Shown piece after piece: positions 2,259 to 48,000 of a stretch of DNA of 64,000 bases. Location: IMG/VR virus record IMGVR_UViG_3300030329_002238, one strand, 5' to 3'. Each line of letters begins with the position of its first letter. The stretch's first letter is position 1. A program made the position numbers and the translations under genes. Below the pieces are notes generated by a model. That model saw nothing but the letters and a program-made list of their open reading frames with translations. It was not told the origin of the DNA and did not search any database. This DNA comes from an uncultured virus (IMG/VR IMGVR_UViG_3300030329_002238). Taxonomy: Duplodnaviria > Heunggongvirae > Uroviricota > Caudoviricetes.

Positions 2259-2663
2259 ATGGGATTAGATCAATATGGTGGTTGGTTACAAAAACCAACT
2301 AAAGAAGAACAATTACATAGCAAAATTGTAAATCAACCTATATTTGAACATAACTGTGAGTTTGACTGGCGTAAACATGCAAAATTACAAAAGTTTATGG
2401 AAGACATATGGTATACCCGAGAAACTGACGGGGAAGACATGTTTAATGGTCAAACATTATTACTCACTAAGGAAGATATATTAAATTTGCAACAGGTTTT
2501 ATTAAATGATAATTTACCTGAATCTGAAGGTGGGTTCTTTTTTGGACATCAATTTCAAGATGAGTCTGCTAAACAATACAAAGAACAAGATCTAGAATTC
2601 TGTAAAGAAGCACTCAAATGGCTAGATGAAGGCAAAGAAGTATTTTATGAGTGCTCGTGGTAA
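2259..2663 (+). CDS. Conserved phage protein of the MGLDQY...WRKH...Y.CSW type
   Basis: AAGGAG RBS before ATG 2259; motif pattern recalled from a widespread phage hypothetical family. Confidence 0.75.
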   Translation: MGLDQYGGWLQKPTKEEQLHSKIVNQPIFEHNCEFDWRKHAKLQKFMEDIWYTRETDGEDMFNGQTLLLTKEDILNLQQVLLNDNLPESEGGFFFGHQFQDESAKQYKEQDLEFCKEALKWLDEGKEVFYECSW

Positions 2664-2665
2664 AA

Positions 2666-2860
2666 ATGAACATTGAACAAGAAAATAAACGGCTATTAGA
2701 TGTTTGCTTACAAAAACATGACTTTATTGGTTTTTACCATAGTTCAATGCTACCAAGTAATGCTGAACCTTTACCTTGGTTTAAAATGATGTGTGACTAT
2801 ATAGCTTATAATGCTGTCGACATTTATGAATATAATCAATGGTGTAAAGAACGTAGGTAG
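2666..2860 (+). CDS. Hypothetical early protein, paralogue family A (divergent)
   Basis: MNIEQENKRLLDV...FKMMCDYIAY resembles the ORFs at 340 and 582. Confidence 0.6.
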   Translation: MNIEQENKRLLDVCLQKHDFIGFYHSSMLPSNAEPLPWFKMMCDYIAYNAVDIYEYNQWCKERR

Positions 2861-2951
2861 GGATGTTATAGAGAGTAGGACGACTTCCTGGCGAGGAAGA
2901 GTAAGATAGGCCACGCTATAATTACCCCTACCGTTTTTATTTTAAGTTCCC

Positions 2952-3062
2952 GAAGTATGTAATAGACACGACCTTGTGGGTGTAATTGGTATATACCGTA
3001 AGATGCTGAGTTAATCAAAGCAACCCCTCAGTCCAACTGATACCGTCAATGTTACATACTTC
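2952..3062 (+). ncRNA. Boxed stem-closed RNA unit 1
   Basis: GAAGTATGTAATA/TGTTACATACTTC closing stem; boxes GACACGACC and TGATACCGTCAA. Confidence 0.7.
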
Positions 3063-3072
3063 ACTAGTTTCC

Positions 3073-3168
3073 GAAATACACAATAGACACGACCAGGTAC
3101 CAGCTGCAGCGAAGTGAACACGAGTACACGGGCGTTCACCCTTTGACACCGTCAATGTTGTGTATTTC
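3073..3168 (+). ncRNA. Boxed stem-closed RNA unit 2
   Basis: GAAATACACAATA/TGTTGTGTATTTC closing stem, compensatory changes relative to unit 1; boxes GACACGACC and TGACACCGTCAA. Confidence 0.7.
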
Positions 3169-3300
3169 ACCAAACAAAAGAACCCTTGCAAAGGTAGGAG
3201 GTTACACCAAAATCCCGGTAGACTAGCGTGTGTAATCATATAGTCAAAGAAGGTCGCACCTTCCATGCACAATGTTCCTCCGATTTTTGCATAAGTTCCC

Positions 3301-3493
3301 GTAATGTGCAGTTAATGAAACGACCACTGACAGCCTGCATTGTAATGATATATCACGCATGGCGAGGAGTTGCATTAACAGCTGGCCTCTAAAAGGGCGT
3401 AAAACAACCTTAGGTCTGATACATAGGTAGTGGTTTGCTGAATTTAAAACTTAAGCACAAACCCGAAAAAACTGAACCCTAACTGTACATTAC
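3301..3493 (+). ncRNA. Boxed stem-closed RNA unit 3 (long)
   Basis: GTAATGTGCAGTTA/TAACTGTACATTAC closing stem; GAAACGACC and TGAACCC boxes; same AAGTTCCC leader as unit 1. Confidence 0.6.
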
Positions 3494-3583
3494 AACCCTG
3501 CGACAGTATATGTCGCATGTGTAAGTTATTATCCTACGATGATATTTTTTATGTATTTCTATAAACCAAATAAGGAGTAAATT

Positions 3584-4618
3584 ATGGCACAAGAAATGAA
3601 TATCCCCCCAATTAAGGCTCAAGATTTATCAAAAGAAATTATTGATAATGTTCGAGCTGGTATTAATACATTTGTCTGGGGTCCCCCAGGTATAGGTAAA
3701 TCACAATTAATGCATCAAGTTGCAAGTAAATTAGAAAGACCAATATTGGACTTTCGTGCAAATTTATTTGATCCAGTAGATGTGCGTGGAATACCTTTTC
3801 ACGAAGCTATGGAAGGAACTAATATGACATATTGGGCACCACCTAGCATCTTCCCTTACGAGCATAGAGATTCACCAGAAGGTATTTTCTTTCTAGATGA
3901 ATTAACTACAGCACCTACAGCCACACAAAATGCTTTCTTACAACTATGTCTAGACGGAAAAGTTGGTGATTACAATTTACCAAATGGCTGGTCAATAGTT
4001 GGTGCAAGTAACAGATTAGCAGATATGGCAGCTGTTTATGAAATGACATCAGCTATGAAAGATAGATGGCTTCATTATGTATTAGAACCTAATGTAGAAA
4101 ATTGGTGTGAATGGGCAGCTGAAAATAACATATCAGATGTTATAACTTCTTTTATAAGATTTAGACCAAATTTATTACATGATTTTGATCCTACCTATAC
4201 TGCATTTCCAACTCCTAGAAGTTATGAAGTTTTAAATAAGAAACTACAAATGAATGATAATTCAGAAGAAGCTAGATTCTTTGCTGGAGTATCAGCTATT
4301 TTAGGACAAGGTGCAGCAGGTGAATTTGTAACGTTTAAAGAAAACAGAGACAAAATGCCTGATATAGAGAGCATCATTAGACAACCTAATGCAGCAAAAG
4401 TTCCTAAAGATGAACCTGCAATCATGTATGCAATAGCAGGTGCATTAGCAGCTAAAGCTACATCTGATAACTTTGACAAAATATGTACTTATGCAGGACG
4501 TATGGCTCCAGAGTTTCAAGTAGTTTTAATGAGAGATTCATTGTCTAGAACCAGATCATTGGGATCGCACCCTGCATATCAGCAGTGGGTTAGTAAAAAC
4601 GCAACGGAGATATTGTAA
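3584..4618 (+). CDS. MoxR-type AAA+ ATPase
   Basis: Walker A GPPGIGKS, Walker B FFLDE, sensor GASN, MKDRW; partner vWA gene downstream. Confidence 0.9.
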   Translation: MAQEMNIPPIKAQDLSKEIIDNVRAGINTFVWGPPGIGKSQLMHQVASKLERPILDFRANLFDPVDVRGIPFHEAMEGTNMTYWAPPSIFPYEHRDSPEGIFFLDELTTAPTATQNAFLQLCLDGKVGDYNLPNGWSIVGASNRLADMAAVYEMTSAMKDRWLHYVLEPNVENWCEWAAENNISDVITSFIRFRPNLLHDFDPTYTAFPTPRSYEVLNKKLQMNDNSEEARFFAGVSAILGQGAAGEFVTFKENRDKMPDIESIIRQPNAAKVPKDEPAIMYAIAGALAAKATSDNFDKICTYAGRMAPEFQVVLMRDSLSRTRSLGSHPAYQQWVSKNATEIL

Positions 4619-5256
4619 TGGCAACAGTAAGAATGAGCGACAGACTTGTATGGGGTATACGAGATGAAGCTAAAAATCAATTTGATAACATAAACCCAAA
4701 GAAAGAATTTCCTATGTCTATAGGAGATGCTATTTATAAGGAAAAAATTGCACCCTTCATAAATAAAATTACACCTATAGTTGAGGAATATAACTTTAGA
4801 GATGTTTTTAAGCTAGAAGCTCATGAAGAGTTATCGGTAGGATTATTAGGTGTAGATAACACTGTATCAGATAATGCTAAGATTCCTATGAGTGCTTCAA
4901 GAGACCTCCCTACATATCGTTATGGTTCTTGTACCATAGATTTAGAAGCTACTGATGAAAATGCTATAGCAATTAAAGAAATATTAAACTTTAATGAAGA
5001 CATTGGAATTCGTAGAACAGAATACGAAGATAAAGTAAAAGAAGCTTTAGGAAATTTTACTACTCTTAATCAAGCTCTTAAAGCATGGCCTGCTGTTAAG
5101 AAATTAATACCAGATGAAGAAAAACATTTGTTAGCTAGAGTCTATGAGAAAGTTCAAAGGAAAAAGAAACAAGATCAGCAAAGAGCTGAGATTGAATTAA
5201 ATGAAACTGAACTTAACGAAGTAATCTTAACTAATTCATTAATAGGAGGAGACTAA
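4618..5256 (+). CDS. Hypothetical protein, possibly Nmad5-like
   Basis: C-terminal TTLNQALKAWP pattern recalled from the Nmad5 family; translationally coupled. Confidence 0.5.
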   Translation: MATVRMSDRLVWGIRDEAKNQFDNINPKKEFPMSIGDAIYKEKIAPFINKITPIVEEYNFRDVFKLEAHEELSVGLLGVDNTVSDNAKIPMSASRDLPTYRYGSCTIDLEATDENAIAIKEILNFNEDIGIRRTEYEDKVKEALGNFTTLNQALKAWPAVKKLIPDEEKHLLARVYEKVQRKKKQDQQRAEIELNETELNEVILTNSLIGGD

Positions 5257-5441
5257 TGGGTAAACCTACAAATTGGATAAGAGTATCTAATGCTGACACA
5301 GGACATTACGAAATGTACCAAAATTTTAGAGATGTTTTGTGGGATATGGGTATTGATATATGGAAAGATGAAGATTTAGCATCCGAATCAGCAGTTGATC
5401 TATTTATTTGTTTAGAGAAAAGGGAGGAGACTAATGAGTGA
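5256..5441 (+). CDS. Hypothetical protein
   Basis: GGAGGAG RBS, overlapping operon structure. Confidence 0.65.
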   Translation: MGKPTNWIRVSNADTGHYEMYQNFRDVLWDMGIDIWKDEDLASESAVDLFICLEKREETNE

Positions 5442-6252
5442 TTATCATTGGAACCAAATACACCACAGAAAAAACCTTGATATGCCTGACTTTAGAAAGG
5501 ACTATCCTCTTTTAGTTAAATATTCTGGAGTTTGGAATATTCCTAACGACTTACCTGCTAGAGCACATGTAGAAGCAGAGTGGAATACACAAGATGAAGA
5601 AGCAAGAGCAAAAGAATATGCTTGGGAAATAAAAGTTCATGAAGAAATTCTTATAGAAGAACTTAAATCCACAAGGAAAAATAAACAACATCTTATAGAT
5701 GTATTTGATTATTTCTTTGTAAATGGGTGGAAATACAATAAATATATGTGGAAACCTTTTACAACACAAAATCTTGTAGATGTAAGAACCATAATTCATG
5801 ATTATTTTGCTGCTTCAAATTTTGAAAATGTATATACAAAACTAACTGCAGAGGATAAAGAGTCTTGGCAGTACGTAACTCAGGTGTGGTATAGAATCCC
5901 TCAAACACATGGAATTACACTTCATTTATTAGGTGCCTTTGATAATATTGAAGAACTTAATAAACACATGAATGAAGACTTCTTATTAAGTTTAAAAGAC
6001 TTACAAAGAGAAGATCTAGATTTTAGAAATGTATGGAACTCTTTAAATACATTAGCTCATTTTTATCATGAAGAAAATAAATATGGGAATATTTGGCATA
6101 GGGTAATACCAAATGCTATAGAGGTTAGAGCAGATGATGAACCTATAGGACTTGTTACTAGAGATGAATTCTCTGCAGAAGACGCTAATTGGCAAAGAAG
6201 CAAATACCATAAAGAAGCTTACTTAGACCAGAAAATAAAAGGAAAAATCTAA
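5434..6252 (+). CDS. Hypothetical protein (272 aa)
   Basis: GGAGGAG RBS; long ORF within operon. Confidence 0.75.
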   Translation: MSDYHWNQIHHRKNLDMPDFRKDYPLLVKYSGVWNIPNDLPARAHVEAEWNTQDEEARAKEYAWEIKVHEEILIEELKSTRKNKQHLIDVFDYFFVNGWKYNKYMWKPFTTQNLVDVRTIIHDYFAASNFENVYTKLTAEDKESWQYVTQVWYRIPQTHGITLHLLGAFDNIEELNKHMNEDFLLSLKDLQREDLDFRNVWNSLNTLAHFYHEENKYGNIWHRVIPNAIEVRADDEPIGLVTRDEFSAEDANWQRSKYHKEAYLDQKIKGKI

Positions 6253-6641
6253 TGAGTGAAATGTTATGTGATAAATGCCTAGAGAAAGGCATATTTTCTG
6301 TTCTTGTTCCAGGTAAAGAACTAGACGATTTAAATAATTATTATTGCGAGCAATGCGATGTTTTGTACGATGCTTTAAATAAAGATTCTGGTATTTGTTA
6401 TGGGTGTGATAAAAATATTAAACCTAACCAAGGCAGCTGGTTAGCAAAAGATGGCAATGAATATTGTAACCATTGTTATGACAATGATTTTTATCCAAGG
6501 TTTTATGGGTTTACCAGGACCGACATGATGGAAGGCAAAGCTGGGTTTAATATGGATGGCGAAAAATTACATAAAAAAGATCACAAACTTTTTAAAAAAC
6601 CAAAAATGAAAATTATCAAAAAAATAAAAAATGAGGACTGA
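6252..6641 (+). CDS. Zinc-finger protein
   Basis: Four CxxC pairs (CDKC, CEQC, CYGC, CNHC). Confidence 0.7.
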   Translation: MSEMLCDKCLEKGIFSVLVPGKELDDLNNYYCEQCDVLYDALNKDSGICYGCDKNIKPNQGSWLAKDGNEYCNHCYDNDFYPRFYGFTRTDMMEGKAGFNMDGEKLHKKDHKLFKKPKMKIIKKIKNED

Positions 6642-6897
6642 CTTAGTTTTTCAATTCGACTCTACTGATCACGGCACAATTGATTGGAAATACAACGATG
6701 ATGTAAAGGAAAAAATGTACTACGCACAATGGATGGTTAAAAAGCGAGACGTAGTTGTGCTTACAAAACTACCTGCAGATATCAAAAAGATTGTGCATAC
6801 AGAGTTATTTGAAAGCTTTGCAGAAGAAAACCAACAAGTTAGAGATCATAACAATAAAAAGGCACGTGAGAGACGTGCGAGGAGAAATAATGGCTGA
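6631..6897 (+). CDS. Hypothetical protein
   Basis: Overlapping operon structure. Confidence 0.65.
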   Translation: MRTDLVFQFDSTDHGTIDWKYNDDVKEKMYYAQWMVKKRDVVVLTKLPADIKKIVHTELFESFAEENQQVRDHNNKKARERRARRNNG

Positions 6898-8005
6898 TTC
6901 ATTTACTAGAGCTAGAACAAGATTGTTACTAGACCAACCATTCTTTGGTGCATTAGCATTAAAGTTAATAGTTCAAGAAGATACTACAATGCCGACTGGA
7001 GCTACAGACGGTAAGTATCTCAAATATAACCCTAAGTGGTTTGAAAAATTACCTGAGCCACAGCAAGAAGGGTTCATTGCTCATGAAATTATGCACATAG
7101 TTTACATGCATATGCTACGTAGAGAGCACAGACACCACAAAAAGTGGAATGTAGCTGCAGATTATGTAATTAATTGGAATCTTGTACATGACTGTCACAT
7201 GTCTTTACCAGAAGGAGCATTACTTGATGAGCAATATAGAGACATGACAACTGAGCATGTATATAACTTATTACCAGAAATGGAAGATGAAGATGGTAAC
7301 TCAATACCTTGGGACGATTTACCTACAGACTTCGGTGGTTGTGGTGGAGTAGAAGATGGCCAAGGAGATGGAACAGTTGCAGAACAAAAATGGACCATCG
7401 ATATCAACCAAGCATATCAAGCAGCGAAAATGGCTGGTAAGACACCAGGTGGGTTAACAAAAATTATTGATGAAATAATAAAGCCTAAAGTTAACTGGAA
7501 AACAGTCTTAATGAAGTTTATAACTAATACAGCTAAGAACGATTACAGTTGGTTAAAGCCTAATAGAAGATTTATCGCTAAAGATATGTATCTACCTAGT
7601 CTTTACAGTGAAAGATTAGAATCTATTGTAGTTGCAGTAGATACATCAGGTTCAATCTCTGATGAAGAGCTACAAATATTTGCCTCAGAAACTAGTGCAA
7701 TACTAGGCTTAATGGATCCTGAGAATATACATTTCTTACAGTGTGATACTGAAATAAATCAGCATGACACCTATACAAGACAAAATTTACCTCTAAAAGT
7801 AGAGTTTAAAGGTAGAGGTGGAACAGATTTCGCTCCTGTATGGGAATATATAGAAGAAAATAATCTAAATCCAAAATGCTGTGTCTATTTAACTGACTTA
7901 TATCCATGTGATTGGGGCGAGCAGCCACCATATCCTGTGCTATGGGTAGCAACAACAGATGATGTAGAAGTACCATTTGGTGAAGTTACAAGGATTCAGG
8001 TATAA
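6890..8005 (+). CDS. Zincin-like metallopeptidase plus vWA domain protein (DUF2201-like)
   Basis: ATG 6890 after AGGAG; AHEIMH (HExxH), WNVAADYVIN, MIDAS DTSGS, GGTDF, YLTD. Confidence 0.9.
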   Translation: MADSFTRARTRLLLDQPFFGALALKLIVQEDTTMPTGATDGKYLKYNPKWFEKLPEPQQEGFIAHEIMHIVYMHMLRREHRHHKKWNVAADYVINWNLVHDCHMSLPEGALLDEQYRDMTTEHVYNLLPEMEDEDGNSIPWDDLPTDFGGCGGVEDGQGDGTVAEQKWTIDINQAYQAAKMAGKTPGGLTKIIDEIIKPKVNWKTVLMKFITNTAKNDYSWLKPNRRFIAKDMYLPSLYSERLESIVVAVDTSGSISDEELQIFASETSAILGLMDPENIHFLQCDTEINQHDTYTRQNLPLKVEFKGRGGTDFAPVWEYIEENNLNPKCCVYLTDLYPCDWGEQPPYPVLWVATTDDVEVPFGEVTRIQV

Positions 8006-21312: not shown

Positions 21313-23505
21313 TTATAAATCTGGTTGTAAGTTTACCATTTCTCCAAGTCTATTCAAGTTAGTTCCTGCTAATTGATAGAATGCTTGTACATTATCTGAC
21401 ATATTAGAATTAGCATATATAGCTTTAGGTTCGTACCAAGTATCTTGTGTAGGCATTTGTACTTCTCTATAAGCATCAAAACCTACTACATATCCTAAAT
21501 AAGCTACTAAAGTTGACTCATCACCATACTGCCCTGTCTCTTGTTGTTCTGTTGCTGCCTGTTCTTGTTGGGCTTCTATATTTTGGGCTACTATTTGTTC
21601 AGCTATTTGGTCTGCCTCACTAGCTGTCATTGTTCCTGATACGGCTGTGTCTATCTCACCTTGCATATCCTGGACCTGAACATCGGCCATAGACACTTGA
21701 GGGGTGTTATCTATATCAGGTAATACACTAACTGTAACAGTAGAGCTGCTACTAGACATATCACTGCCTGAACTCATAGATAACACTTGTTGTGTTTGTG
21801 CAGAAGCAGAAGCGAATTGGTCAGATAAACTCGGAGAGCTTGTTGTACTTACCCCACCCGTTGATGACATGGACGCACCAGACGAACTACTTGTAACCGT
21901 AGAAGCACTAGACCCCCCAGAGTGTATTGAACTATTTCCCCCTACAGAATTTGCACTAGAAGAATAACTATTCCTGGCTGTTTGCATTGTTCCAGCAACA
22001 ACATCTAAAGCAGATATTCTTACTGAACTTCTTTGTTCTCCTACTTCTTCTTCGTTTTCGGCGAAGACTTCTTCGATTTCTTCGGACTCGATTTCTTCTT
22101 CGGTGCTTTCTTCGGCTTCGGCGATACGCTCTTCACGGGTTTCTGTGGCTTCAAAGATTTCATCCAGCTCTTGAACTTCATCCATCTCCTCTTCAAACCA
22201 CTCCTCCAAGTCTTCAATAGACTCGAATTCTTCGATCCTTTCTTCTTCATTTTCTAGTTCCTCTCTAATTATTGTTTCAAATTCAAATATATCAATTAGC
22301 TCATTAGTGTTAATTATATCTAAAACAGCCAAAGGCTCATCAATACGCTCAAATACTATATACTCTTCCTCAATTATATTGAAGTCTGGAAGTGGATCAA
22401 TGTCACCTATACTATATTCTTCAAATAACATTTCTTCTTCCCACTCAAATATGTCATCAACACCAAAAGTTATTAATATTTCTTCATATTCTTCTTCATA
22501 CCCAACGTAGTTAAACTCTTCAAATGGCTCTTCAAACCATTCTTCTTCTATGTAGTAGTCATTATAGTTGGTGTCTTCTTCATACCCATAATCAAATTCT
22601 TCTTCAATGAAATAGGCTACTGAGGCTTCTTGTGTGTAACCAGCACAGAAAGGAGCGTATTGTGGGTCTTCATCACATTGTTGATCATCATATGCTTCCC
22701 AATATAAAGGACATGACTGGCTGTATAATGAATCAAGATTACATTGCTGAGTTAGATAAGCTGCTGCATAACCTGAGCAACTAGCATCGTTCAGGGGGTC
22801 ACTACAGTCCACTGCATTGCCCGATCCCTCCCCATATAGACTGCCACCACCCTCTAGAGCGGTGTTACTAGCTGTACCATTCCAATTTGTGTTTACACAT
22901 GTACCAGCAACATTAGTTGTACCTGTATTACATTCATCGTGAAAAAGGTACGTATAGATCTCTGTCGCACTTCCTTGTTCTCCTATTAGTACATCGTGGT
23001 TAGTTATATTTAACCCCCCATATCTATATTCAAAAGTATCGTTGGGCCATAGTATTACTTCAAAACTATTGTCAGTATTATTACGACCATATTCCTTCAT
23101 GTTGTACCAACCAAAAACAGCCTTGTCCGTAAAGTTTTTAGCTAGCATCTTTGAACCGCCGTCCCTAATTAGATCAGTATAAAAAGGATATAGGGTATAA
23201 GTGGTATGGGGCAGTGGGTCGGGTGTGTAATCACCACAATAGTTATTATAGCTTACATTCCCTGTCCCTAAGCCAAAGTGAAGACAACCATTTGTAGCCA
23301 TTCTGGCAGAAGTAAAGTCTTCACCATATAAAGTAAACGTAAAGTCTAAATTAAAAGCACCTGATAATTGGTCATCACCAGTATTAAAATTCGTAGTACC
23401 TGTAAGGTTAGTTAAATTAAAAAGGTCTTGGTCAGCTTCGTATATATAAGCAGAACTTAAAAAACTACTTAATAAAAGTAAACTAGTAGTTATTAAACTC
23501 TTCAT
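21313..23505 (-). CDS. Secreted protein: NIDO-like domain, Cys-rich, Glu-rich and Ser-rich segments
   Basis: Signal peptide; LDFTFTLYG...ATNG...YPFYTDL...NSFEVILW resembles NIDO. Confidence 0.7.
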   Translation of the reverse strand: MKSLITTSLLLLSSFLSSAYIYEADQDLFNLTNLTGTTNFNTGDDQLSGAFNLDFTFTLYGEDFTSARMATNGCLHFGLGTGNVSYNNYCGDYTPDPLPHTTYTLYPFYTDLIRDGGSKMLAKNFTDKAVFGWYNMKEYGRNNTDNSFEVILWPNDTFEYRYGGLNITNHDVLIGEQGSATEIYTYLFHDECNTGTTNVAGTCVNTNWNGTASNTALEGGGSLYGEGSGNAVDCSDPLNDASCSGYAAAYLTQQCNLDSLYSQSCPLYWEAYDDQQCDEDPQYAPFCAGYTQEASVAYFIEEEFDYGYEEDTNYNDYYIEEEWFEEPFEEFNYVGYEEEYEEILITFGVDDIFEWEEEMLFEEYSIGDIDPLPDFNIIEEEYIVFERIDEPLAVLDIINTNELIDIFEFETIIREELENEEERIEEFESIEDLEEWFEEEMDEVQELDEIFEATETREERIAEAEESTEEEIESEEIEEVFAENEEEVGEQRSSVRISALDVVAGTMQTARNSYSSSANSVGGNSSIHSGGSSASTVTSSSSGASMSSTGGVSTTSSPSLSDQFASASAQTQQVLSMSSGSDMSSSSSTVTVSVLPDIDNTPQVSMADVQVQDMQGEIDTAVSGTMTASEADQIAEQIVAQNIEAQQEQAATEQQETGQYGDESTLVAYLGYVVGFDAYREVQMPTQDTWYEPKAIYANSNMSDNVQAFYQLAGTNLNRLGEMVNLQPDL

Positions 23506-24547
23506 TACAGGTGCGCTTTGACTTCCATTTTCCGCTTTCTCCCCTAGTGTTTTTACACTGTTTCATGAACTCCTTTTTATATTGTTTAGCATCTGGTCTT
23601 TTAGAAGGGTTCTCTTTCCAATATTTACTAGCCTCTTTACCTATCTTTCCATACGCTGGACACGGAGTGCCTGCCATTTCCATAGCTTGAAAAACACGGG
23701 AATCCTGGCAAAGAATACCTACTGAAGCCACTTTCATACCTGTGTCGTATAAATACTTAGAAAGTTTTAACCTTTCACAGTTCTCATCTCTTACTGTTCT
23801 ACCTGTTGAGATACCAAAGACCTGACCTTGAAATGCTCCTGATCTACCAACAGTACAAAGATCTTGGCTATAACTCATAATAGAAGGAGCTATAGCAGAG
23901 GCGGGAGGGGCTTTACTTGTTATCTCCTGTTTGATTGTCTGAGTAGAGTTGCTTTGATTAATATTCCTGTTCGTGTTGTCAGACGTAGTATTACTTTCAT
24001 TAATATTAGTATTTTTATTATCAGTAGTTACATTTGACTCAGATGTGGACTGGTTAATGTTTGTATTGTTATTTGTATTGTTGTTTGTATTCGTATTGTT
24101 GGACGTACTTGTGGATGTGTTAGTGTTGTTTGTAGTACTTGTGTTAGTAACATTCTGATTAACACTTGAGTTTACTGTACTTGTAGACGTAGAAACATTT
24201 GTGTTTGTGTTGCTGTTGGTATTAGTAGCCGTACTAGTACTATTATTAGTATTTACATTGGTATTACTATTGGTATTAGTATTTGTATTCGTATTTGTAT
24301 TAGTATTGGTATTAGTATTTGTACTCGTATTTGTATTCGTATTTGTATTAGTATTTGTGTTGGTATTAGTATTTGTGTTGGTATTAGTATTGTTAGTAGT
24401 TGTAGTGTTAGTTGTTTCTAAACTATTCTGCTCACAATACTGCTCCCCAGCTGTACAGTCACCTGTTTGATCCGCTAACGCGGTTGTTGATAGAACTCCT
24501 ATTACCCCTAGTAGAATCCATCTACCTACGGGGGTAATATTTTTCAC
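23483..24547 (-). CDS. Secreted Asn/Thr-repeat protein with Cys-containing C-terminal domain
   Basis: Signal peptide ending ALA; long (NT)n tract; PPASAIAP...DLC...DENCERLK...GTPCP. Confidence 0.8.
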   Translation of the reverse strand: MKNITPVGRWILLGVIGVLSTTALADQTGDCTAGEQYCEQNSLETTNTTTTNNTNTNTNTNTNTNTNTNTNTNTSTNTNTNTNTNTNTNTNTNSNTNVNTNNSTSTATNTNSNTNTNVSTSTSTVNSSVNQNVTNTSTTNNTNTSTSTSNNTNTNNNTNNNTNINQSTSESNVTTDNKNTNINESNTTSDNTNRNINQSNSTQTIKQEITSKAPPASAIAPSIMSYSQDLCTVGRSGAFQGQVFGISTGRTVRDENCERLKLSKYLYDTGMKVASVGILCQDSRVFQAMEMAGTPCPAYGKIGKEASKYWKENPSKRPDAKQYKKEFMKQCKNTRGESGKWKSKRTCNEEFNNY

Positions 24548-39085: not shown

Positions 39086-42000
39086 CTACCAAAGGGTGTA
39101 GTATACAGGAACTTGTTCCTTCCAGAATCTTGAATCAAGAGGACCATATTTAAATAGGTCGAAAACTTTACCAGAAGTAGGACCTAATATATCTGCCCCT
39201 GTTTCATACGGCCCACCAAAACTATGATCACCAGGTAGTAATGGGAAAAGTATCCCAAAAGCCCCCAAAATTCCACTCCTATCAATAAGCTCCGCAAACC
39301 ATGTACCCCAATCCATATTATCCGTGTGAAAGTGTTGATCCTTCATCTCTACTCCAGGTAATGGTCCAGCTAATACATATTTAATCCATTCTTTTAATTC
39401 TAGCCCCATTATAGTTAAAGGTAAAACAGTAAAAGCCATCATAGTTAAAGGAACAGCGGCCCCTCCAATACCTTGCTCTCTAAACCTATTTTTTATCTCT
39501 CTATATTGCCCCATAACTATAGTTTGCCCATATGCATAGAAGAAACCTTTAAGCTGCCAAACTAAAGCAAAATAAGGGTTACTAGCCCATGTAGGTCTTT
39601 GAGCTGCATTAGGTCTAATTATTGATTCATTAACAAATTGATAAATAGCTTGAGATGCTTTTTCACCTTCAGGAGTATTAAAATCAAACCCACTTTTCTC
39701 CCAAGCCAATACTTCTGCCCTTGTTATATTAAGCTGTTCTAACCAACGGTCAGTAGTTACCCTATCAGTTAACACATCATGTGCAGTACTAACTAAAAAT
39801 CTTTTACCCATACCTGCAGCAAATACCCTAGTAAACCTAGTGAATTGATCTAACATTATTGCTTTAAAGAAATAGTCTGTTAACCTTTTGGAGTTAGGGG
39901 TCATATAATCCATTTCAGCTGCATGTATATACATCATAGATAATGAATCTTGAGTAATGGCACCAACATCTAAAGCAAACTGTACTGCTGCATCTTTATC
40001 ATTAAAATATTGTCTATACTCTTTAGCCGCATTTTGAAAAGAATTAAAAGAATTACTACGTAAAAGTGGACCAGCTAAATCTGGAAAAGACGCAAGTACA
40101 GCAAAAGTTAAAGTTGTAAATACGTTTGCAGCTATTCCCCAACTATTAATTTTTCTAGCTAAAGGGTCCATAGGAGTACCAAGTTTACCTAGCATTGCTC
40201 TTATAGCTTCCCTAGCTTTAGGCTGCTGGTGGGGTTCAAGTTTGCTAATTTTACTCTCAAACCACGCTGCACCACCCACTCTTTCGTACTCTACTCTTTT
40301 AGTAATAGCCCTTAAGTAATTCATGGTTGCTGTAAAACCATCTTCTAGTACACCTATTTCTCTTAATTCACTAGTAGCAAATCCATAGGCTTTGTAAATT
40401 GGGTTACCGTCCTCATCAACTTGTTCAACTCCGTTTTCATTCACAGCTGGTGAAATTTCATACTTCATAGTACGGGCTAATGCATTAGGTAGCCCCAACT
40501 TAATAGATTTAGAATCTATATCTTGCTCATGTTTTGATAATGCATCAGTAAGATTATCATTTGGGTCTCTACTAAGTATATCTAAAACAAATAATTCAGC
40601 CCATTCTTCAGGTGTAACCCTCTGCGCTTCTACGCCTTCAGGTGTCCTAAGCCCCTCATAAACTACAAGACCATCTATATCTGGTCTTATTTCCCCTCGC
40701 GTCCCTTTGTTACTTTTTATACGCCCTTCTCTTAGTTTATTTGCTACATAATTAACAAAAGCATTTCTAAGACCATCATCATTTGCCATATCCCATACTT
40801 TTAATGACCTACTAAAATAACTAGCAACACCAATTTCTTTACCTTTTCTATCTCTTAATATAGTTTCAAGGAACTTGGGTGAATCTTCAAATTCAACTTC
40901 TTGCAAATAAGGATATAATACGTTCCTTTTCCACATCCTTAACTTATGCCCCATAGGACTTAATTTAGAAAGTTTTTCATCTGAGATTCTTTCATCTTCT
41001 GCATAGGCAAATGCCTTATCATGTTTCTCAGTAAACTGCCTACTAAACATCCTGTTTACATCTAGTTCAAGTATCTTAGCTAGTTGATTATTGAACTGAG
41101 AGAACTTTCTATCTTTGGCATCAAGTAATCCTAATTCTTGACCTTTTTCTGCTACTGTTCTTGATCTACGTTGTATTCTATTCGCCATCTCCCTGCCTAC
41201 AGGGTTACCTTCTTTATCTTTCATACGCCCCAAAAAACTAGAAGCAGGTTGAACAATTTTTGCGAGGAATGAAGCCCCATTAGGATTATTTCTAACAATC
41301 TCGTTATATTTCTTAGCTGTTTCTTTTCTTACAGTTTTCCAAGCAGCTTTTGCTAAACCAAAATTATTTCTTTCTGCCTCAACAACTTCTTCAACCATGT
41401 TAAACAAGTGTTCTTTTTCTTCAAATCCTAAATAACCCCGCTGAAATTCAAGGTTCTTTGTTGCCTTAAATGACTTAGCTAAATCATCTGCAAACTCATT
41501 GAAAGCTTCACTAGGAACAAATCTCCCTGCAAAAATCTTATCTGCTGCTACACCTTCCATAAGTTTAGTCCAAGCTCTTTTTATTTTATTTGCTAATCGT
41601 GCAAAAAAACCTTCTGCAAAATTTTGAGGTTTAGTTTTTCTACCGTCCCTAAGAGTTTTTATTAACCAGGCTGCAGTTTGATCAGCGAACCACTCTTCAA
41701 AACCTTTTGTTTGATCTTCGACTCTTCCAGGCTCCTCGTTCCTATATCTAGTGTTAAGAGGTTGAGCTGCTTTAAAGTCTTTCCATATTTTTTCTTTTAC
41801 GCCCTTATTAAAATGTAAACTGTCTAACTCGTTAAAAGCTATAACGTGCCCAAGCTCATGAGCTAAAGCGATCATAACCTGTGCAGAACCTAATAGATCT
41901 TTTTGAGTTTTATTTAATTTAGCATAATCATCTGCTCGGATATTAGAGGGTCTCCCTGTTCTTGCAGAATATGTATCTATTACAATAATATACTCCTTGT

Positions 42001-45000
42001 CCCCCCTCATCTTAAAGGTCGCCCCTCTTTGGCCCCATTTATTTTTCTGTTTCTCCTTCCATAATTTATTTAAAACTCTTTCTGTCTTACCATCCCTATA
42101 TAGAAGCTTTAATAATGCATCTTCTCTTTTACGCTTAGTATTCCACTCTGGATTAATGTCATCGTAAGTTAAAAAAGTTAGGTTTGCTTTTATACCAAAA
42201 AATTTAAATTTCTTAAGAAGAGCTAACATAGGCCCACTATATTTACCCATAGACTCTTTGAATGCTTTACTAGTACTAACAAGTTGTTTACCTGCCTCCC
42301 TAGTATCTTTTGTGCCTATTGCGTCTTGGTCTACTCTTAAGCCCCCTATAAGCCCCTCTTTTACATATTCTGGTATAAAGCTCCTAGAAGATGCTTGTAA
42401 AGAACCTGGGTTTAACTTTTCACTAAGCCTTATTTGTGCTCTAAACTCTGCTTCTCTTTTTGCTGTTGGCATGTCTGAAAGCTCACCTAGAATTGAATCC
42501 GCTATTTCTGGATCAGATTCTCCTGTATCTGGATCCATTTCTATATCTTGTGTATTTATTGAATAGCCGTTTTTTTCAGCATAGTCTTGTAGTGTTACTA
42601 TTATAAATTTATAGTCTTCAACGCTGTCTACAATTGTTTCACCTGGCGTAAACTCATTAGTAGGTTGAAGATATATAGTCTCCGGAGATAACTTATCTAT
42701 ATCTGGCATTATTTCAACATACAGAGGTTTATACTGCTCCCAATTAGTATTTAAAACATTTTCATCACTATTTTTACCCCAAGAATTTTCTATAATTTCA
42801 TTTATTTGTTTTTCTCTGTTTTCTGATATTTCTCTAGGTCCAGCTATATTAACTGTGTCTATATTATGGGCTTTTAACCACACCCATATTTTTTCCTGAC
42901 TTTGAGGATTAACTAAAGTGGGCTTACCGAGCTCCCTAGCTTTTCTTATAGTGTAACCAGTTCCAGGAGTTATACCCGATCCATCACCTTCAGTAAAAAC
43001 TAAAGTTCCATCACTATTTATAATATTTTTATCGGTACGATCGTTATAGTTATCACTTTCTGCTTCTTCTAAACCAAGATCTTGTAGTTTCTTAGCATGC
43101 GTTGCTGGATTGGTGGCAGCACTCCTATACCCTAATGGGGCCGTGCCACCAGTCTCTATTCCTACTTTTTTAGCTGCATTTAACCCTATAAAATCAACGC
43201 CTGTTTGCCCACCACTAATAATTTTGCTAGGTTTTATGGCTTTGCCCCGGCTTTCTATTGCGCTCCTTGTCTCTTCAAGTGACTCCTTCCGGCGCTCTGC
43301 AAACTTATCATTTACTTCCGTTTCTAAATCTTCATAAGCCTGAAAATTACCCCATATTATACCGTCCAACTTTGTTAGAGGTACTTCACCTGTCTGAAGT
43401 TGTTCATTAACTATAGTATGCATAAGGGCTCTTATTTGTTCTCTATAATTTTTTATAGTCTCTAGACCTATGGCGTCAGCCGGTAATTTACCAGTTATAC
43501 CATACAAGTCAGCAAATGTAGCTCGTTTACCTAGTTTATAGTTAGAAGAAACTGCAGCCCTAGATTGAAGAAATATTTCTGGTGTAGCGTCTACAAGAGC
43601 TACAGAAGGAAGTAATGTATCCGTATCTTTATATTCTTTTTCTTCCTGTTTAGAAAGTTTTTTAAACTTATGGGTGTATAGTGGGTCATTACTATATCCA
43701 AAAGGTTCCTCTTGTTTTTTTAATTTAGTATCATGTATATTGGCATACCAACGCCCCGGTCTATAGTCTGCGTAGTTTACAGTATCAGTTTGTTCATAAA
43801 ATTTTACCCCATTCAGTCTATACTCATTATATTGTAGATGTGGTTGCTTCTGCTTTTCTAAAGTTTTAGGATAAGGGTTTTCTGTCCATTCAACATAAAT
43901 CCCGTGATTACCTACTAACAACCTAGAAAATTTAGGACCAAATATTTCTTTAAGTCGTGCTTTTATACCAGCAGCAACTTTTATAGTTGAATTGTCTTTT
44001 TGTATAGTAGCTTTTTTTAAAGTGGGGTAAGATCTTTTTAAGCCCTCTAAATGGGTTTTTCTTATACCTAAATTTATTTCTTCTATTTCTGCTTCAGAGT
44101 ATTCTTCTAAATATTTTAACCTATGTATAAAGCGCTGGTACAGTGGAACACCTCTATCTCCACCACCAGTTCTACCACCATACATAAACATGTTTGTATA
44201 GAAGTCGTTATAATCGAAGTGAATATAGTTTAATTCTTCAAATGCATCAAAAGCTTCTCTTTGGCTATTAAAACCTTCTGCCTTAAAGTCTTCTTTAATA
44301 ATCTCTTGAACTTTCTTTTGTTTGGGTTCCTCTATTAATCTATATAAACCAGCGTCTTTATCTTTTGCTATTCTAAATACATCTCCTTTCTCTCCTAATT
44401 TAGAACGCCTAGAAGTCATAGTTTTTTTACCAGATTTAACTAATTCCGCTGGCTCTGTAAAAGAAACTACAATTTCTTTTGTAGTGCTGGGCTTACTAGG
44501 TCTTACCCTAAAATCATATCCATATTTAGCTCCTAAAGCTAATACCGTCAATAAAGATGCCTGTCTAAAATCTCTATCCCCCTCTATAAACTTACCAAGC
44601 ATGTTACTTTGATTGACTGTAGTACCATACTTAGCAAATCCTAAAGGCATATGAATAATTTTTTCCTCTGCCCTAGAAAAGTTTTGTAATTTTTCATCGT
44701 AGGCTTTTTCTAAAAATAGAACTCTTTCAACAAACTCTGTTTTTATATCTTTCCTTCTTCTATCTTTTTTAGCTTTTTTAAACTCTGAAACTACTATTCC
44801 TTCTATACTTTCTCTTTCTGTTTTCTCTCTAAATTCTAAAGCTTTGTCTTCCGCCTTTTTTTTGCCTTCAGGAGTAAGCATAGTAAAGAAAGCTTCTCCT
44901 CTCATTCTTTCAGCGTCTGCATCTGTTTCTTTACCACTTACAGTAGCTGCGGCAAAAAACCTCTTAGTGAACTCTTCCTCAGTGATTGGTAACGGGCCCC

Positions 45001-48000
45001 TCTTTGTATTTGAATAGTCCATAATAAGATTACTTTCTGGACTAGGTAAGTATTTTATTACAAAGCCTAACTTGTTTTTAGCAAAGCCAAATTGCTCTGC
45101 TATAACAGGGTAGGTATCAATTACATGCTCTAAATTAAAACGGTTATGTGTGTTTTTTATTTCATTTACTGCATTTACAAACTCTTCTTTTATTGCTTTT
45201 TTTCTTCTGTCTTTTCCTTCACTCTTAAACTGTCTAATTACTTCTTCTTTAAATATCCTGTCTTTTATTTCTGGTTCATCTTCTTTTTTAGTCTTATTCA
45301 CCTCCACAAAATGCTGAGGTACAACCGTGTATCTAATAGCCTGGCCCTCATGGGAATCTATTAATCTTATTAATCTATTTATAAGACCTTGGGGTAGTTT
45401 TACACCCAATCTGGACTCAAGTGCATTTAAATCTGCTGATTCTTCTGGTTGTAGTCTTTCTCTTAAAGCTATTCTACTGTCTGTATATGCCTGATATGCT
45501 CCTTCTACTTTTTTAGCGGCTTCTTCATTAAAGGGTAGCCACGGGTTGCCATTTTGATTAATAACTTCCACCCAAGAATTTGGTTCTCTTGTAGACATAC
45601 CTTCTTCAGTTTCATCAACAAAACCCCCCTCTTCTTCTTGTACTTGTTGTTCAGCAACTCCTGCTGCTGTGTCATCTAATTCTTCTTGAGCTCGCTCTGC
45701 TTTAGTTTTTGCTACTCCTTCTATATCTTCTTCCAAAGACTCAGTGGGTTTTTTGGCTTTTTCAGCTTCTGCCTCTTCTTGCTGTTGTAGAGCAGCTTTA
45801 TATTTACGTAGGACTCTAGAATCTAATAGAGATACATCATTTACTGGCTCCCCTTTTCTTTCTAAAGAAGCAATAAGTTCTTTTTGTATAGGTACAAGTA
45901 TTTCCTTTATACGCTTTTCTAGAGTTAATTTTAAAGGTAATAGACTTTTTAATACCTGATCAAAATTACCCCCAGTTAAATTTTTATATATTTCTATTAA
46001 TACAAGTGGGTCATCCCAAAAAGATTCTACTACTCTACCTATTTCGTCTGCGTTTTTAGCAGCTTTTATTCTGTCTAAAGCGTTTTCAGTTCTTACCCTA
46101 GTAAAATCATCTTTATTTTCTTTTGTGTTATTTCTTTCATATGTGTCTTCTGCTATGTCTTCAGTGCTATAAGGACCCTCTATTTCTACAAGATTTTCTT
46201 CTATGCCCTTTTTAAAAAGAGCTTCTAAACTCTGTTTAGTTGCTTCTTGGTCAGCTGCATTAGTTAATTCTGTATGTACATATTCACCACCATCTTTCCA
46301 CCTAACTCTAAAACCTCTATCGTCTGCTGAGGTTAAAGGTCTTAGATAATTAAGAGCTGCAGCTATAGACTCTTTACCTGGGTCATCCACAAACTCATCT
46401 ACTTTCCTTTTATTTAAAGATATTAAAGTACCAACACCTTCTACCGCACCCACGTGTACTTTTCTCCCACCATAAATCTTATTTAACTCTTTCTGGGTTG
46501 GAATTACTTGATTTGGTGGAAGATACACTGAATCTTTAGCAAGGCTAGTTTCAAACAAAGAAGATATTTGTCTTCTTATATCTTTTACTGGTTCAGGGAT
46601 ACTCTCATTAGGTCCTTTAGTCCAATCAAATTCAGTAAACTGTTTAGTATCTAAAAAAGATAAATCAGGCATAACCACCGGTTTTAGATTCAAGTCTTCT
46701 TCAATACTAATATCGGTACCAAATATTTTTTTACCTGTTTCTTTACCACCAAACAGCGCGGATATAGTTCTTACAGCAGAAGAAGCCTTTTTATATTGTG
46801 CTTTACTATTAAGGGCAGAATCAAAATCAGGATTTATACCAAATAAATCCAATTGCTCCATCTCTCCTCTAGCCCGTTTTGCTTTTCTTTCTGTCCGTCT
46901 TTCTTTTCTACCTAATAAATCTTGAGTTCTATTAACAATCCTTTCTACACTAGAAGACACACCTCTACCACCACCAGCAAATACACCACCACCTACAATA
47001 CCTTTAAATGAAGCCGTTAGTAAATCCATTCTGGCTTGTTCCCTGTCATATTCTGGATCTATAGAAAGTTTTTGTGCAATCGTCATACTTTCTTGAAGGG
47101 TTTCAGCAGTACCTTCAGATACAGCTCCCGTAGCAAAACCTTTAGCTGTTTGTACCCCAACCTTACTGAGATCATTTAAAAGGGCCATATATATAGGAGC
47201 CTCGGCTCCACCTTTTGCGGCACGTTTCTTAGCTATTTTTGTAATATGATCTGTTAGGGGTTTTATAATTGCTCTACCTGCAACTAACTCTGAAGTTATT
47301 CCAACTGCTGCGTATGGACCAAAACCTACTGCAGCACTTATAGCCGCTTCTCTAGGTGAAGTCATATCTTGCCTAGCAAACTCACCAAAAGTTACACCTG
47401 TTCCCTGTCCACCCTCTTGTAAATAAGCTCCCGCTAATCCCCCCATTCTTGTTCTACGTTTCCAACCAGGTTGTCCAGCAAATTTCTCTAGTAATTTTAA
47501 TTGGTCCCCCCTAAATTTATCATCATAAGTTCCTTTTAAATCTCTTAATCCTTTTCTTTTATTTTTCCAAGAGTCTTTTACAATATTTAATAAAGCCTTT
47601 TTACCAGGTCCAGATATAGCCTGTGTTAGCCCTAATCTAGCTCCCGCCCAAGTAGCCGTCCCTGTAAGGAGACCACCAGTTACCGCGGGGACCCCCGCAA
47701 TACCTGCTATAATAGCTCCTGTAGTTGCCGCAGCTAAACTCGCCACTATTGAAGGAGCAAACTCACCCGTAGCTATTTTTGCCTGTTCTATAAAACCATC
47801 TACTGTTGGGGCATTTAAAAAATCTTCAACTGTAGGTAACCCCTGCATATATTCACCAGCAATTTCTTCCCAAAATAGGGCTTCCTGTAGGGATTCATCT
47901 AGTTCTTTTTCATCACCTGTTATAGCTTGGAAAGCAGCATCTAGATAATTTATATTAGCTCGTACGCTAGCAGCACCAGACGAGACAGCACGAGAAAAAG

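Follow-up and report, generated by a model that had tools for sequence, protein, structure and literature searches.

What kind of element is a stretch of phage DNA that holds no gene and in which stem-closed units instead follow one another in tandem? The question is raised by the 64,000-nucleotide DNA of an uncultured virus of the Caudoviricetes (IMG/VR record IMGVR_UViG_3300030329_002238; the whole stretch is called the window here), in which three such units occupy positions 2944 to 3493. They lie in a gene-free interval between a small gene (2259-2663) and a gene for a MoxR-type AAA+ ATPase (3584-4618), all three on the plus strand. A reading made from the letters of the window alone (the sequence-only reading) had proposed modular RNAs with a constant scaffold and swappable cargo. 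Through comparison with related phages, we conclude that the region is, as judged from its sequence, a plus-strand array of structured noncoding RNA modules. Each box-bearing module, or box module, consists of a closing helix (P1) of 10 to 13 bp, a large conserved internal loop (5' GACACGACC opposite 3' GAYACYGUMAA), a short covarying inner helix (P2) and a structured cargo. Close relatives differ in closing helices, in cargos and in unit number (one to six), and they carry these parts in mixed combinations. The reading that we favor, with a probability of roughly 0.5, is that the array is transcribed as a plus-strand precursor together with the upstream gene and is cut at its A-R-U-U-Y-C-C linkers, yielding stable small RNAs that would share a protein-binding loop and carry different structured cargos.

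Direct reading of the window agreed letter for letter with the coordinates, stems, boxes and preceding motifs originally given for the three units. Unit 1 (2952-3062, plus strand, as are all features of the array and its flanks) is closed by a P1 that pairs 2952-2964 with 3050-3062 through the 13-nt arms GAAGTATGTAATA and TGTTACATACTTC, with one U.G pair at position 12. Inside P1 are the 5' box GACACGACC (2965-2973) and the 3' box GATACCGTCAA (3039-3049), and then P2, in which TTG (2974-2976) pairs with CAA (3034-3036). The cargo is predicted to be an H-type pseudoknot that combines GGGT (2978-2981) paired to ACCC (3023-3026) with the hairpin GCTGAG (3005-3010)/CTCAGT (3027-3032). The linker ACTAGTTTCC (3063-3072) separates unit 1 from unit 2 (3073-3168), whose P1 (3073-3085 with 3156-3168; 13-nt arms GAAATACACAATA and TGTTGTGTATTTC) also has one U.G pair at position 12. 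Here the 5' box is at 3086-3094 and the 3' box, GACACCGTCAA, at 3145-3155; P2 pairs AGG (3095-3097) with CCT (ca. 3140-3142), and the cargo contains the hairpin GTGAAC...GTTCAC. The layout common to these two units is a 13-nt arm, GACACGACC, the interior, TGAYACCGTCAA and a second 13-nt arm. Unit 3, the last unit (3301-3493), has a 14-bp P1 (GTAATGTGCAGTTA/TAACTGTACATTAC, 3301-3314 with 3480-3493) and boxes of its own, GAAACGACC, which is related to the 5' box of units 1 and 2, and CTGAACCC; the CGACCAC of GAAACGACC pairs with an internal GTGGTT(T/C), and the interior comprises a conserved core and two hairpins that vary with compensation. All three units begin with G and are preceded by AAGTTCCC or AGTTTCC, the copy of AAGTTCCC immediately 5' of unit 1 being at 2944-2951.

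Relatives were found through searches with the downstream MoxR protein and with a strict pattern of the boxes, which returned 4 IMG/VR loci and 26 metagenome loci, the latter comprising 16 true arrays and 10 stemless chance matches. Removal of duplicates of the same contig and of two loci identical to the window left 16 related arrays, or 17 including that of the window, all of them between the same two genes. These 17 hold 56 unit instances with 50 distinct sequences: 27 box-bearing units, 10 plain long hairpins (with stems clamped by GTGT...ACAC ends) and 13 copies of unit 3. A loose box pattern matched 121 IMG/VR loci, of which 1 had flanking stems, the others being chance; the strict pattern gave three matches in a genome collection, all without stems and again chance; and patterns of two linkers matched 33 and 78 IMG/VR loci, among which the two with stems of at least 9 bp were already-known relatives.

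It is the covariation among relatives, not folding energy, which argues that these units are more than chance. When the units were folded singly and compared with 200 shuffles, unit 1 had a z score of -3.25 (0/200 as good) and unit 3 one of -2.14 (6/200 as good); minus strands folded about equally well (z of -1.99 and -1.74). Because the units beat their shuffles only moderately and the minus strands behave similarly, folding energy alone proves little. Across the 27 box units, by comparison, P1 and P2 are 94.6% paired, as opposed to 25.8 to 55.0% when the partners are slid by one to three columns, and 10 of the 16 P1 and P2 pairs show changes on both sides. None of 500 column shuffles reached the observed covariation score, a figure that is not a probability because the sequences are related. 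P2, a 3-bp helix directly inside the two boxes that was newly found in this analysis, occurs as UUG/CAA, UCG/CGA, AGG/CCU, GCG/CGC, GUU/AAC, GUG/CAC, UUA/UAA and CCG/CGG. Over all units there are 21 distinct arm pairs, with complementarity at 9.9 of 10 positions between the two arms of a unit and at 6.4 of 10 between arms of different units. In the outer nine stem positions, all non-Watson-Crick pairs are G.U, with homologous stems passing through A-U, G.U and G-C intermediates, and the outer ten pairs of the box-unit P1 include four G.U pairs and no mismatch. A covariance model built from the 27 box units recovered the known units alone in 83 sources.

The interiors had been described as variable and swappable. 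That they differ and are exchanged among relatives was borne out, but they do not vary freely: k-mer clustering resolves them into about 20 clusters of conserved, covarying folds, and they are for this reason not hypervariable spacers. Unit 1 is one of 11 distinct units with interiors of a single family, predicted to fold into the H-type pseudoknot, in which GGGY pairs with an RCCC located directly before the 3' strand of the CUGAG/CUCAG hairpin. The pseudoknot strands are complementary in all 11, in three versions (GGGU/ACCC, AGGU/ACCU and GGGC/GCCC), and the closing pair of the hairpin covaries as G.U, U-A and C-G. The alignment of unit 3 (n = 12) has 89% mean column identity and 49 predicted pairs, 4 of which have changes on both sides; its two hairpins differ among lineages with full compensation, and its closing stem forms an AU/GU/GC series. 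Exchange of parts is extensive, as had been supposed: in the 17 arrays, 15 stems and about 20 cargo clusters occur in 26 stem-cargo combinations. The cargo of unit 2 is carried in relatives on three stems (GAAATACACA, GAGGTATGTA and GAGGTGTGTA), two other cargos are on two stems each, and a single stem can also carry different cargos. In one relative (L235), the unit 3 stem and part of the unit 3 interior occur together with the boxes that units 1 and 2 carry, for which reason we regard unit 3 as a long member of the same frame. As separate observations on the cargos, the window has the palindromes GGTATATACC (2988-2997) and TGATATATCA (3346-3355), and 9 of the 11 pseudoknot cargos carry a perfect palindrome of 8 to 10 nt at the same position in four sequences (each with p of about 0.025 to 0.05 against shuffles), which could be a small hairpin or a site of RNA-RNA dimerization. 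The hairpin loop of unit 1, TTAATCAAAGC (3011-3024), has an identical copy at 23948-23964 on the minus strand, which lies in sense orientation within the gene 23483-24547, and it is found again in an unrelated plain-hairpin unit of L233 (ca. 990-1005), possibly by chance.

Between the modules runs a conserved, single-stranded linker, AC(C/U)A-(G/A)UU(U/C)CC, which the plain hairpins and the ca. 190-nt last unit use as well. The consensus A-[AG]-T-T-[TC]-C-C stands before all 56 unit instances; since its last five positions served in unit calling, its independent weight is limited to the 27 box units, identified through the box pattern, and it precedes these in 27 of 27 cases. The four bases after P1 are ACCA in 24 of the 56 instances, ACTA in 14 and AACC in 15 (last units), the last units ending in AACC, CACC or ACTA. 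In four arrays (L216, L220, L230 and L239), ACCA precedes the first unit too, where there is no unit before it, and so might be part of the leader. The base at position -1 is a C throughout (56 of 56 instances). RNase E prefers the sequence RN↓WUU (arrow, cleavage), to which A-R↓U-U-Y fits; minihelix substrates of RNase P have a coaxial helix of about 12 bp, a G at position +1 and a 3' RCCA, to which a helix of 12 to 13 bp with G1 and a 3' ACCA corresponds. We also considered the linker or the 3' box as -10/-35 promoter elements and rejected this, as the spacing and the variable stems do not fit.

The G-U pairs of the stems had been taken as favoring RNA on the plus strand, and the alignment of unit 3, with 48 G.U cells versus 11 A.C cells, points the same way. 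The array runs in the direction of both flanking genes, and the terminator-like hairpin B that follows it (3527-3550; TATTATC at 3527-3533 paired with GATGATA at 3538-3544, then T6 at 3545-3550) has its U tail on the plus strand. This hairpin covaries among lineages by eye (TATTATC/GATGATA versus TAACATC/GATGTTA) and ends 33 nt 5' of the MoxR start; a consensus terminator scan, which demands three G-C pairs, did not call it. In 5 of the 17 arrays, the first unit begins 9 to 12 nt past the stop codon of the upstream gene, which leaves no room for a promoter and therefore argues for cotranscription with that gene; a consensus scan found neither a sigma-70-like promoter nor a terminator inside the array. 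Seven RNA runs contain 5 to 10% of the sampled sequence words. Contigs were examined for four RNA libraries, and in three of them (from three studies) parts of the region or of close relatives are covered, namely, 2847-2933 and 3294-3384 in one run, 3318-3529 in another and 3294-3312 and 3476-3700 in the third; run X5 had none. We take these contigs as a weak hint of transcription. One of them, a 151-nt contig from the oligo-dT RNA run X2, joins 3294-3312 to 3476-3603 and so skips the unit 3 interior at the base of the closing stem; it could stem from a relative with a minimal hairpin or from a jump of reverse transcriptase over a stable stem.

Under the reading that we favor, the array would be transcribed together with the upstream gene, and transcription would end at the U-tailed hairpin (3527-3550). 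A host single-strand endonuclease, for which RNase E is the best fit to A-R↓U-U-Y, would cleave the A/U-rich linkers; alternatively, RNase P might do the cutting, on a 12- to 13-bp helix followed by ACCA. The closing helices would protect the ends and so give stable RNAs of 45 to 200 nt, the invariant internal loop would be a common binding platform for one protein, and the exchangeable cargos would work in trans, either mimicking host or defense factors or serving as decoys for them. Cargos that act in trans would explain why units are gained, lost and shuffled in the manner of accessory genes, and because the units reshuffle among phages with near-identical flanking genes, we favor such mimics or decoys over housekeeping regulation. 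It is from this pattern that we infer accessory, conflict-related functions and the mimic or decoy step.

Several points weigh against this reading. Unit 2 by itself folds little better than its shuffles (z of -1.65, with 14 of 200 folding as well), and the column-shuffle control overstates the significance of the covariation owing to kinship among the sequences. In the box-unit P1, position 11 is A.C in 19 of 27 units and position 12 is U.G in 22 of 27; because these offset each other, the two positions are neutral as strand evidence. The window and two relatives (L222 and L233) carry a terminator-like hairpin and U-run between the upstream gene and unit 1, so that read-through or an unseen promoter would be needed there. 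The RNA-library contigs are assembled sequences that carry no information on strand, ends, depth or the parts left uncovered, and DNA may occur in RNA libraries; the assignments to RNase E and RNase P follow general consensus rules. Two of the 17 arrays use one closing stem twice; stems thus need not be unique within an array, which weakens the idea that they must differ. Searching the interiors against the phage itself had been proposed, and in the 64-kb window it revealed no convincing antisense target: the best match among 49 queries was 14 nt long (E of 0.014 to 0.016 per query) and is in sense orientation to a local gene. Finally, AlphaFold2 (AF2) models and structure searches revealed no recognizable RNA-binding fold in the two neighboring proteins (encoded by 907-1632 and 2259-2663).

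Additional structured elements surround the units. Ahead of the array lies a stem-closed element (2856-2943) in which GGTAGGG (2856-2862) pairs with CCCTACC (2926-2932), followed by a U-run (2934-2943); the fold of 2853-2943 has -26 kcal/mol and a z score of -2.06, the element recurs ahead of the array in L233, and a contig of the RNA run X1 covers it. In several other relatives, a different element, resembling an H-type pseudoknot, stands before the first unit of an array or subarray (TTGAG..GGTCC..CTCAA..GGACY, with AGTTC/GAACT and CAAAG/CTTTG variants; L123, ca. 1027-1075 and ca. 1290-1345; L135, ca. 1870-1920) and covaries by eye. The 132-nt spacer between units 2 and 3 (3169-3300) ends in the leader motif ATAAGTTCCC and contains an extra stem-closed fold, in which TGCAAAGGT (ca. 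3187-3195) pairs with ATTTTTGCA (ca. 3283-3291) around an inner GGAGG/CCTCC; its folding energy is -36.5 kcal/mol (z of -4.42; 0/200 shuffles as good), and the spacer is identical in L220. Downstream of unit 3, where the region folds with a z score of -2.93, hairpin A (3499-3517; TGCGACA at 3499-3505 paired with TGTCGCA at 3511-3517) precedes hairpin B. The palindrome of hairpin A, TGCGACA-N5-TGTCGCA, is kept in all close relatives and is also found in the distant L174 (MoxR about 48% identical), at ca. 2113-2140, a short distance 5' of where a gene begins; either an operator bound by a phage regulator or a conserved RNA hairpin could account for it.

The window itself is a nearly complete podophage genome of 37% G+C. 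Family scans identified genes for a P22-type portal, a T4-type large terminase, SU10-type adaptors and a 3009-residue virion protein; the replication block includes MoxR ATPase, Nmad5, a DUF2201 VWA protein, family A DNA polymerase, a VapE-like primase-helicase, a PD-(D/E)XK nuclease and an SNF2 helicase. The small gene directly upstream of the array in all cases (2259-2663, plus strand) encodes 134 residues from MGLDQYGGW, or ORF147 if the longer call from 2220 is taken, and searches of the related loci with phmmer found its homologues upstream of the relatives' arrays (alignment with n = 23). The protein matched no Pfam, PHROG or PADLOC family, and atlas and PDB sequence searches were uninformative. 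Its AF2 model is an alpha/beta fold with a mean predicted local distance difference test score (pLDDT) of 78.8, and the best Foldseek match in the PDB, YfbM (1ryl), has an E value of 0.12 and is not significant. The product of the open reading frame (ORF) 907-1632 is modeled as a helical bundle (pLDDT of 76.3). A Nop-like fold had been considered for these two proteins; neither model gave a significant PDB match by Foldseek, a wider structure search for the 907-1632 product gave none either, and no Nop or Tas protein was matched, although absence of a match is no proof. The MoxR gene (3584-4618, plus strand; Pfam AAA_5/bpMoxR; phrog_1297, E of 1.7e-88) follows the array in every relative. It opens a plus-strand cluster (3584-8005) with genes for Nmad5 (nucleotide-modification associated), two unknown proteins and a DUF2201 metallopeptidase-VWA protein, a composition that hints at a nucleotide or DNA modification module or a chaperone module. 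Elsewhere, the 3009-residue virion protein (39086-48115, minus strand) contains a circularly permuted YpsA (SLOG) domain at residues 1632 to 1767 (PF12694, E of 8.6e-25). Among the 59 ORF translations that cover the window, we found no Nop (PF01798), reverse transcriptase (RVT), integrase or recombinase, Cas, Ro/TROVE or L7Ae family, and a PADLOC scan of 23 ORFs of the early region returned noise alone (IetA, E of 9e-4; Cas12c, E of 5e-4; each about 16 bits).

Which other explanations could account for such an array? One is that the units are cis-acting punctuation of the early transcript, that is, processing or stability elements or a leader or attenuator for the MoxR operon rather than free trans-acting RNAs. 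The units would then resemble the RNase III sites of the T7 early mRNA or 3' stabilizing hairpins, with unit 3 and hairpin B acting as sensor and terminator. We think this improbable but deserving of real weight. The array does lie between codirectional gene blocks, in 5 of 17 cases it directly adjoins the stop codon of the upstream gene and a U-tailed, covarying hairpin follows it 33 nt before MoxR; moreover, unit 3 is long, is highly conserved (89% mean column identity) and comes last wherever it is present. Punctuation would have no need, however, for an invariant 9 x 11 nt loop, for conserved pseudoknotted cargos or for up to six different units, and the number of units varies from one to six among phages with similar flanking genes. 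L136 and L218, which are without unit 3, nevertheless keep hairpins A and B, and by reading there is no alternative pairing of unit 3 with hairpin B that is conserved across lineages. It is rather doubtful, too, that the units are mimics of tRNA ends, cut by RNase P before G1 and trimmed at the 3' side to the encoded ACCA, so that an acceptor/T-like minihelix of 12 to 13 bp engages host tRNA enzymes or tRNA-directed defenses. Each unit begins with a G paired to C, P1 has 13 to 14 bp in box units and unit 3, P1 is followed by ACCA or ACTA at the frequencies given above and the spacers continue for 6 nt beyond ACCA. According to the accessible part of one report, pseudoknot substrates other than tRNA are cleaved by RNase P in dependence on a 3' RCCA motif (PMC12710915), which would suit such mimics. 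Against them, ARAGORN detected neither tRNA nor tmRNA genes, be it in the window or in 13 related loci, and no tRNA-like Rfam family was matched; ACCA also stands before the first units of four arrays, perhaps as part of the leader, and last units end differently. Moreover, the invariant base at position -1 is C, not the U that RNase P prefers there.

Two further explanations we regard with more skepticism. If the array were a DNA-level element, with linkers and boxes serving as recombination sites of mobile cassettes (integron- or PeSL-like) or with single-stranded DNA hairpins at an origin, then the shuffling of units, stems and cargos among close relatives at conserved boxes and linkers, the position just upstream of the replication module and the G.U positions (DNA hairpins tolerate G.T pairs too) would be accommodated. 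Recombination sites, though, need no compensatory changes of the kind that keep P1, P2, the cargo hairpins and the pseudoknot paired, the wobble pairs of unit 3 are strand biased and the 59 ORFs include no integrase or recombinase family. The GC skew makes no turn near 3 kb; it tracks gene orientation, turning at about 20 kb and about 62 kb. The shuffling is explained equally well by homologous recombination at short conserved sequences selected as RNA, and we consider a DNA-level element quite improbable. Least plausible of all is a stem-loop TIGR-like guide array that directs a Nop-domain (Tas) protein to nucleic acid targets. As far as the accessible parts of the two sources show, a stem-loop tigRNA has a stem around two CNA-N9-YG intervals, is about 54 nt long and is encoded beside a Nop-domain Tas gene (PMC12045711), and its intervals, separated by no more than 15 nt, lie directly against the closing stem (bioRxiv 10.64898/2026.09.09.750476). 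Judged by those same parts, the layout is superficially alike: tandem units with closing stems that differ and yet are always palindromic (here the 21 arm pairs), short conserved motifs by the stem, an inner part that varies, short linkers bearing a conserved processing motif, occurrence in phages and a proposed host-supplied processing. Units 2 and 3 also have CCA-N9-TG 3' of the 5' box, and unit 1 lacks it, just as the sequence-only reading had said, but the hint of guides drawn from this was not supported. At least one CNA-N9-YG interval is present in 13 of the 27 box units, in differing registers, and none in the other 14; no unit has a pair of intervals abutting both arms, and there are no dual 9-nt spacers flanked in register by box C (CNA) and box D (YG). 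Two intervals occur only in three units, those with the unit 2 cargo on the GAAATACACA stem, where by reading the flanks show no outward pairing; the six distinct units with this cargo on a GAGG-type stem all keep its fold but have lost both intervals. The bases that would be spacers are engaged in P2 and the pseudoknot and are conserved, the inner parts are covarying folds rather than guides, and box units, at 92 to 111 nt, are about twice the length of a stem-loop tigRNA. No PF01798 match was found in the 59 ORFs, and the top structure matches of the two adjacent proteins included no Tas-like fold.

Other known systems were compared in the same manner. Rfam 15 at gathering thresholds gave 0 of 4227 families in the 64-kb window and none in eight related loci, in agreement with the earlier statement that no matching RNA family was recognized, and the statement that the array is not a CRISPR stands as well; a scan of 2700-3700 at E of ≤10 yielded one noise match, outside the units (SCARNA7, 14.5 bits, the gathering score being 65). 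In bacteria and phages, polycistronic tRNA clusters are matured by RNase E and RNase P, and the array recalls them in its head-to-tail structured RNAs, its spacers of 6 to 10 nt, its G1 paired to the last stem base, its different stem per unit and the ACCA that follows the stem in 24 of 56 instances. It differs in having no cloverleaf, in having one continuous 13-bp helix instead of acceptor and T arms and in its conserved leader motif and shared internal loop, which tRNAs do not have. Box C/D small RNAs (sRNAs) carry RUGAUGA and CUGA boxes, with a kink-turn (k-turn) inside the terminal stem, and have Nop5, L7Ae and fibrillarin as partners. These and the Y RNAs are similar in that a terminal helix is made from the 5' and 3' ends, with an asymmetric conserved internal loop inside it, in that the interior differs from RNA to RNA and in that the genes can cluster. 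Here, in contrast to box C/D sRNAs, the boxes read GACACGACC and GAYACYGTMAA and no k-turn could be placed by eye; its geometry cannot be drawn because the GA of the 3' box is 9 nt from the stem. No Y RNA or snoRNA was matched in Rfam, and the 59 ORF translations include no partner proteins. The RNase III hairpins of T7 early mRNA and the T4-type PeSL cassettes are likewise stem-loops between early phage genes that relate to transcript processing, and PeSL cassettes also shuffle modularly among relatives; those, however, are single hairpins between genes, whereas here up to six units follow one another with no gene among them, and they have a common internal loop, pseudoknotted cargos and no promoter in the linkers. 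Type III toxin-antitoxin (ToxI-like) arrays are near-identical short direct repeats beside an endoribonuclease toxin gene; we rejected this class, since the units differ in stem and cargo and no PADLOC family rose above noise in the 23 ORFs. A retron or other reverse transcriptase-associated noncoding RNA array was rejected because no RVT family was found in the 59 ORF translations. By eye and by general rules, the boxes fit neither the hammerhead (CUGANGA/GAAA) nor a k-turn, loop E or T-loop, and unit 3 does not fit the conserved regions of RNase P; no tool supports any of these matches. In arrangement, then, the array resembles tRNA clusters, stem-loop TIGR arrays and scaffolded sRNAs, but it does not qualify as any of them.

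Where does the family occur? To judge from the sequences searched, the frame is confined to one narrow clade of marine podophages whose MoxR proteins share about 70% identity or more. In 77 loci of relatives at about 46 to 50% MoxR identity, and likewise in L130, the covariance model detected no further unit, and matches of an nhmmer profile of unit 3 were confined to this clade. A blastn search of 50,697 records of cultured phages gave no match; by portal protein, the nearest cultured relatives are 38% identical (KPP25-like), and MoxR relatives in cultured phages are about 33% identical. At the same place, L130 (MoxR 73% identical) has a different hairpin array (2570-2900), with ACU(A/G)AAYUU linkers that resemble those of the window. 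Its repeat, present in three copies, consists of a small CAT..ATG hairpin and then a AGGAGTGC...GCACTCC hairpin, with a Shine-Dalgarno-like AGGAG sequestered in the stem. A literature search found no description of such an array, including in the accessible part of bioRxiv 10.64898/2026.10.21.760802; this search was limited and is no proof that the array is unpublished.

What might such an array mean for the phages that carry it? Phage noncoding RNAs are far less charted than phage proteins, and at this locus strong comparative evidence points to as many as six different folded RNAs in a row on one frame. The recombination of stems and inner domains between close relatives points to selection on RNA modules as exchangeable parts, in the manner of accessory genes. 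One possibility, albeit speculative and on balance unlikely, is a modular ribonucleoprotein system in which the constant RNA frame and its invariant 9 x 11 nt loop are bound by a putative protein and in which traded, aptamer-like cargos each neutralize or mimic a different host or defense factor. If this were true, the array would be an RNA counterpart of an anti-defense gene island, its parts traded by recombination at boxes and linkers. Should the units be released and share a protein partner, their frame would amount to a natural scaffold for RNA display, and the cargos would form a set of natural aptamers or mimics with which their targets could be retrieved directly. Even if the units merely punctuate a transcript, the array would add to the marine podophages a well-supported new family of structured RNAs, with a consensus and a covariance model.

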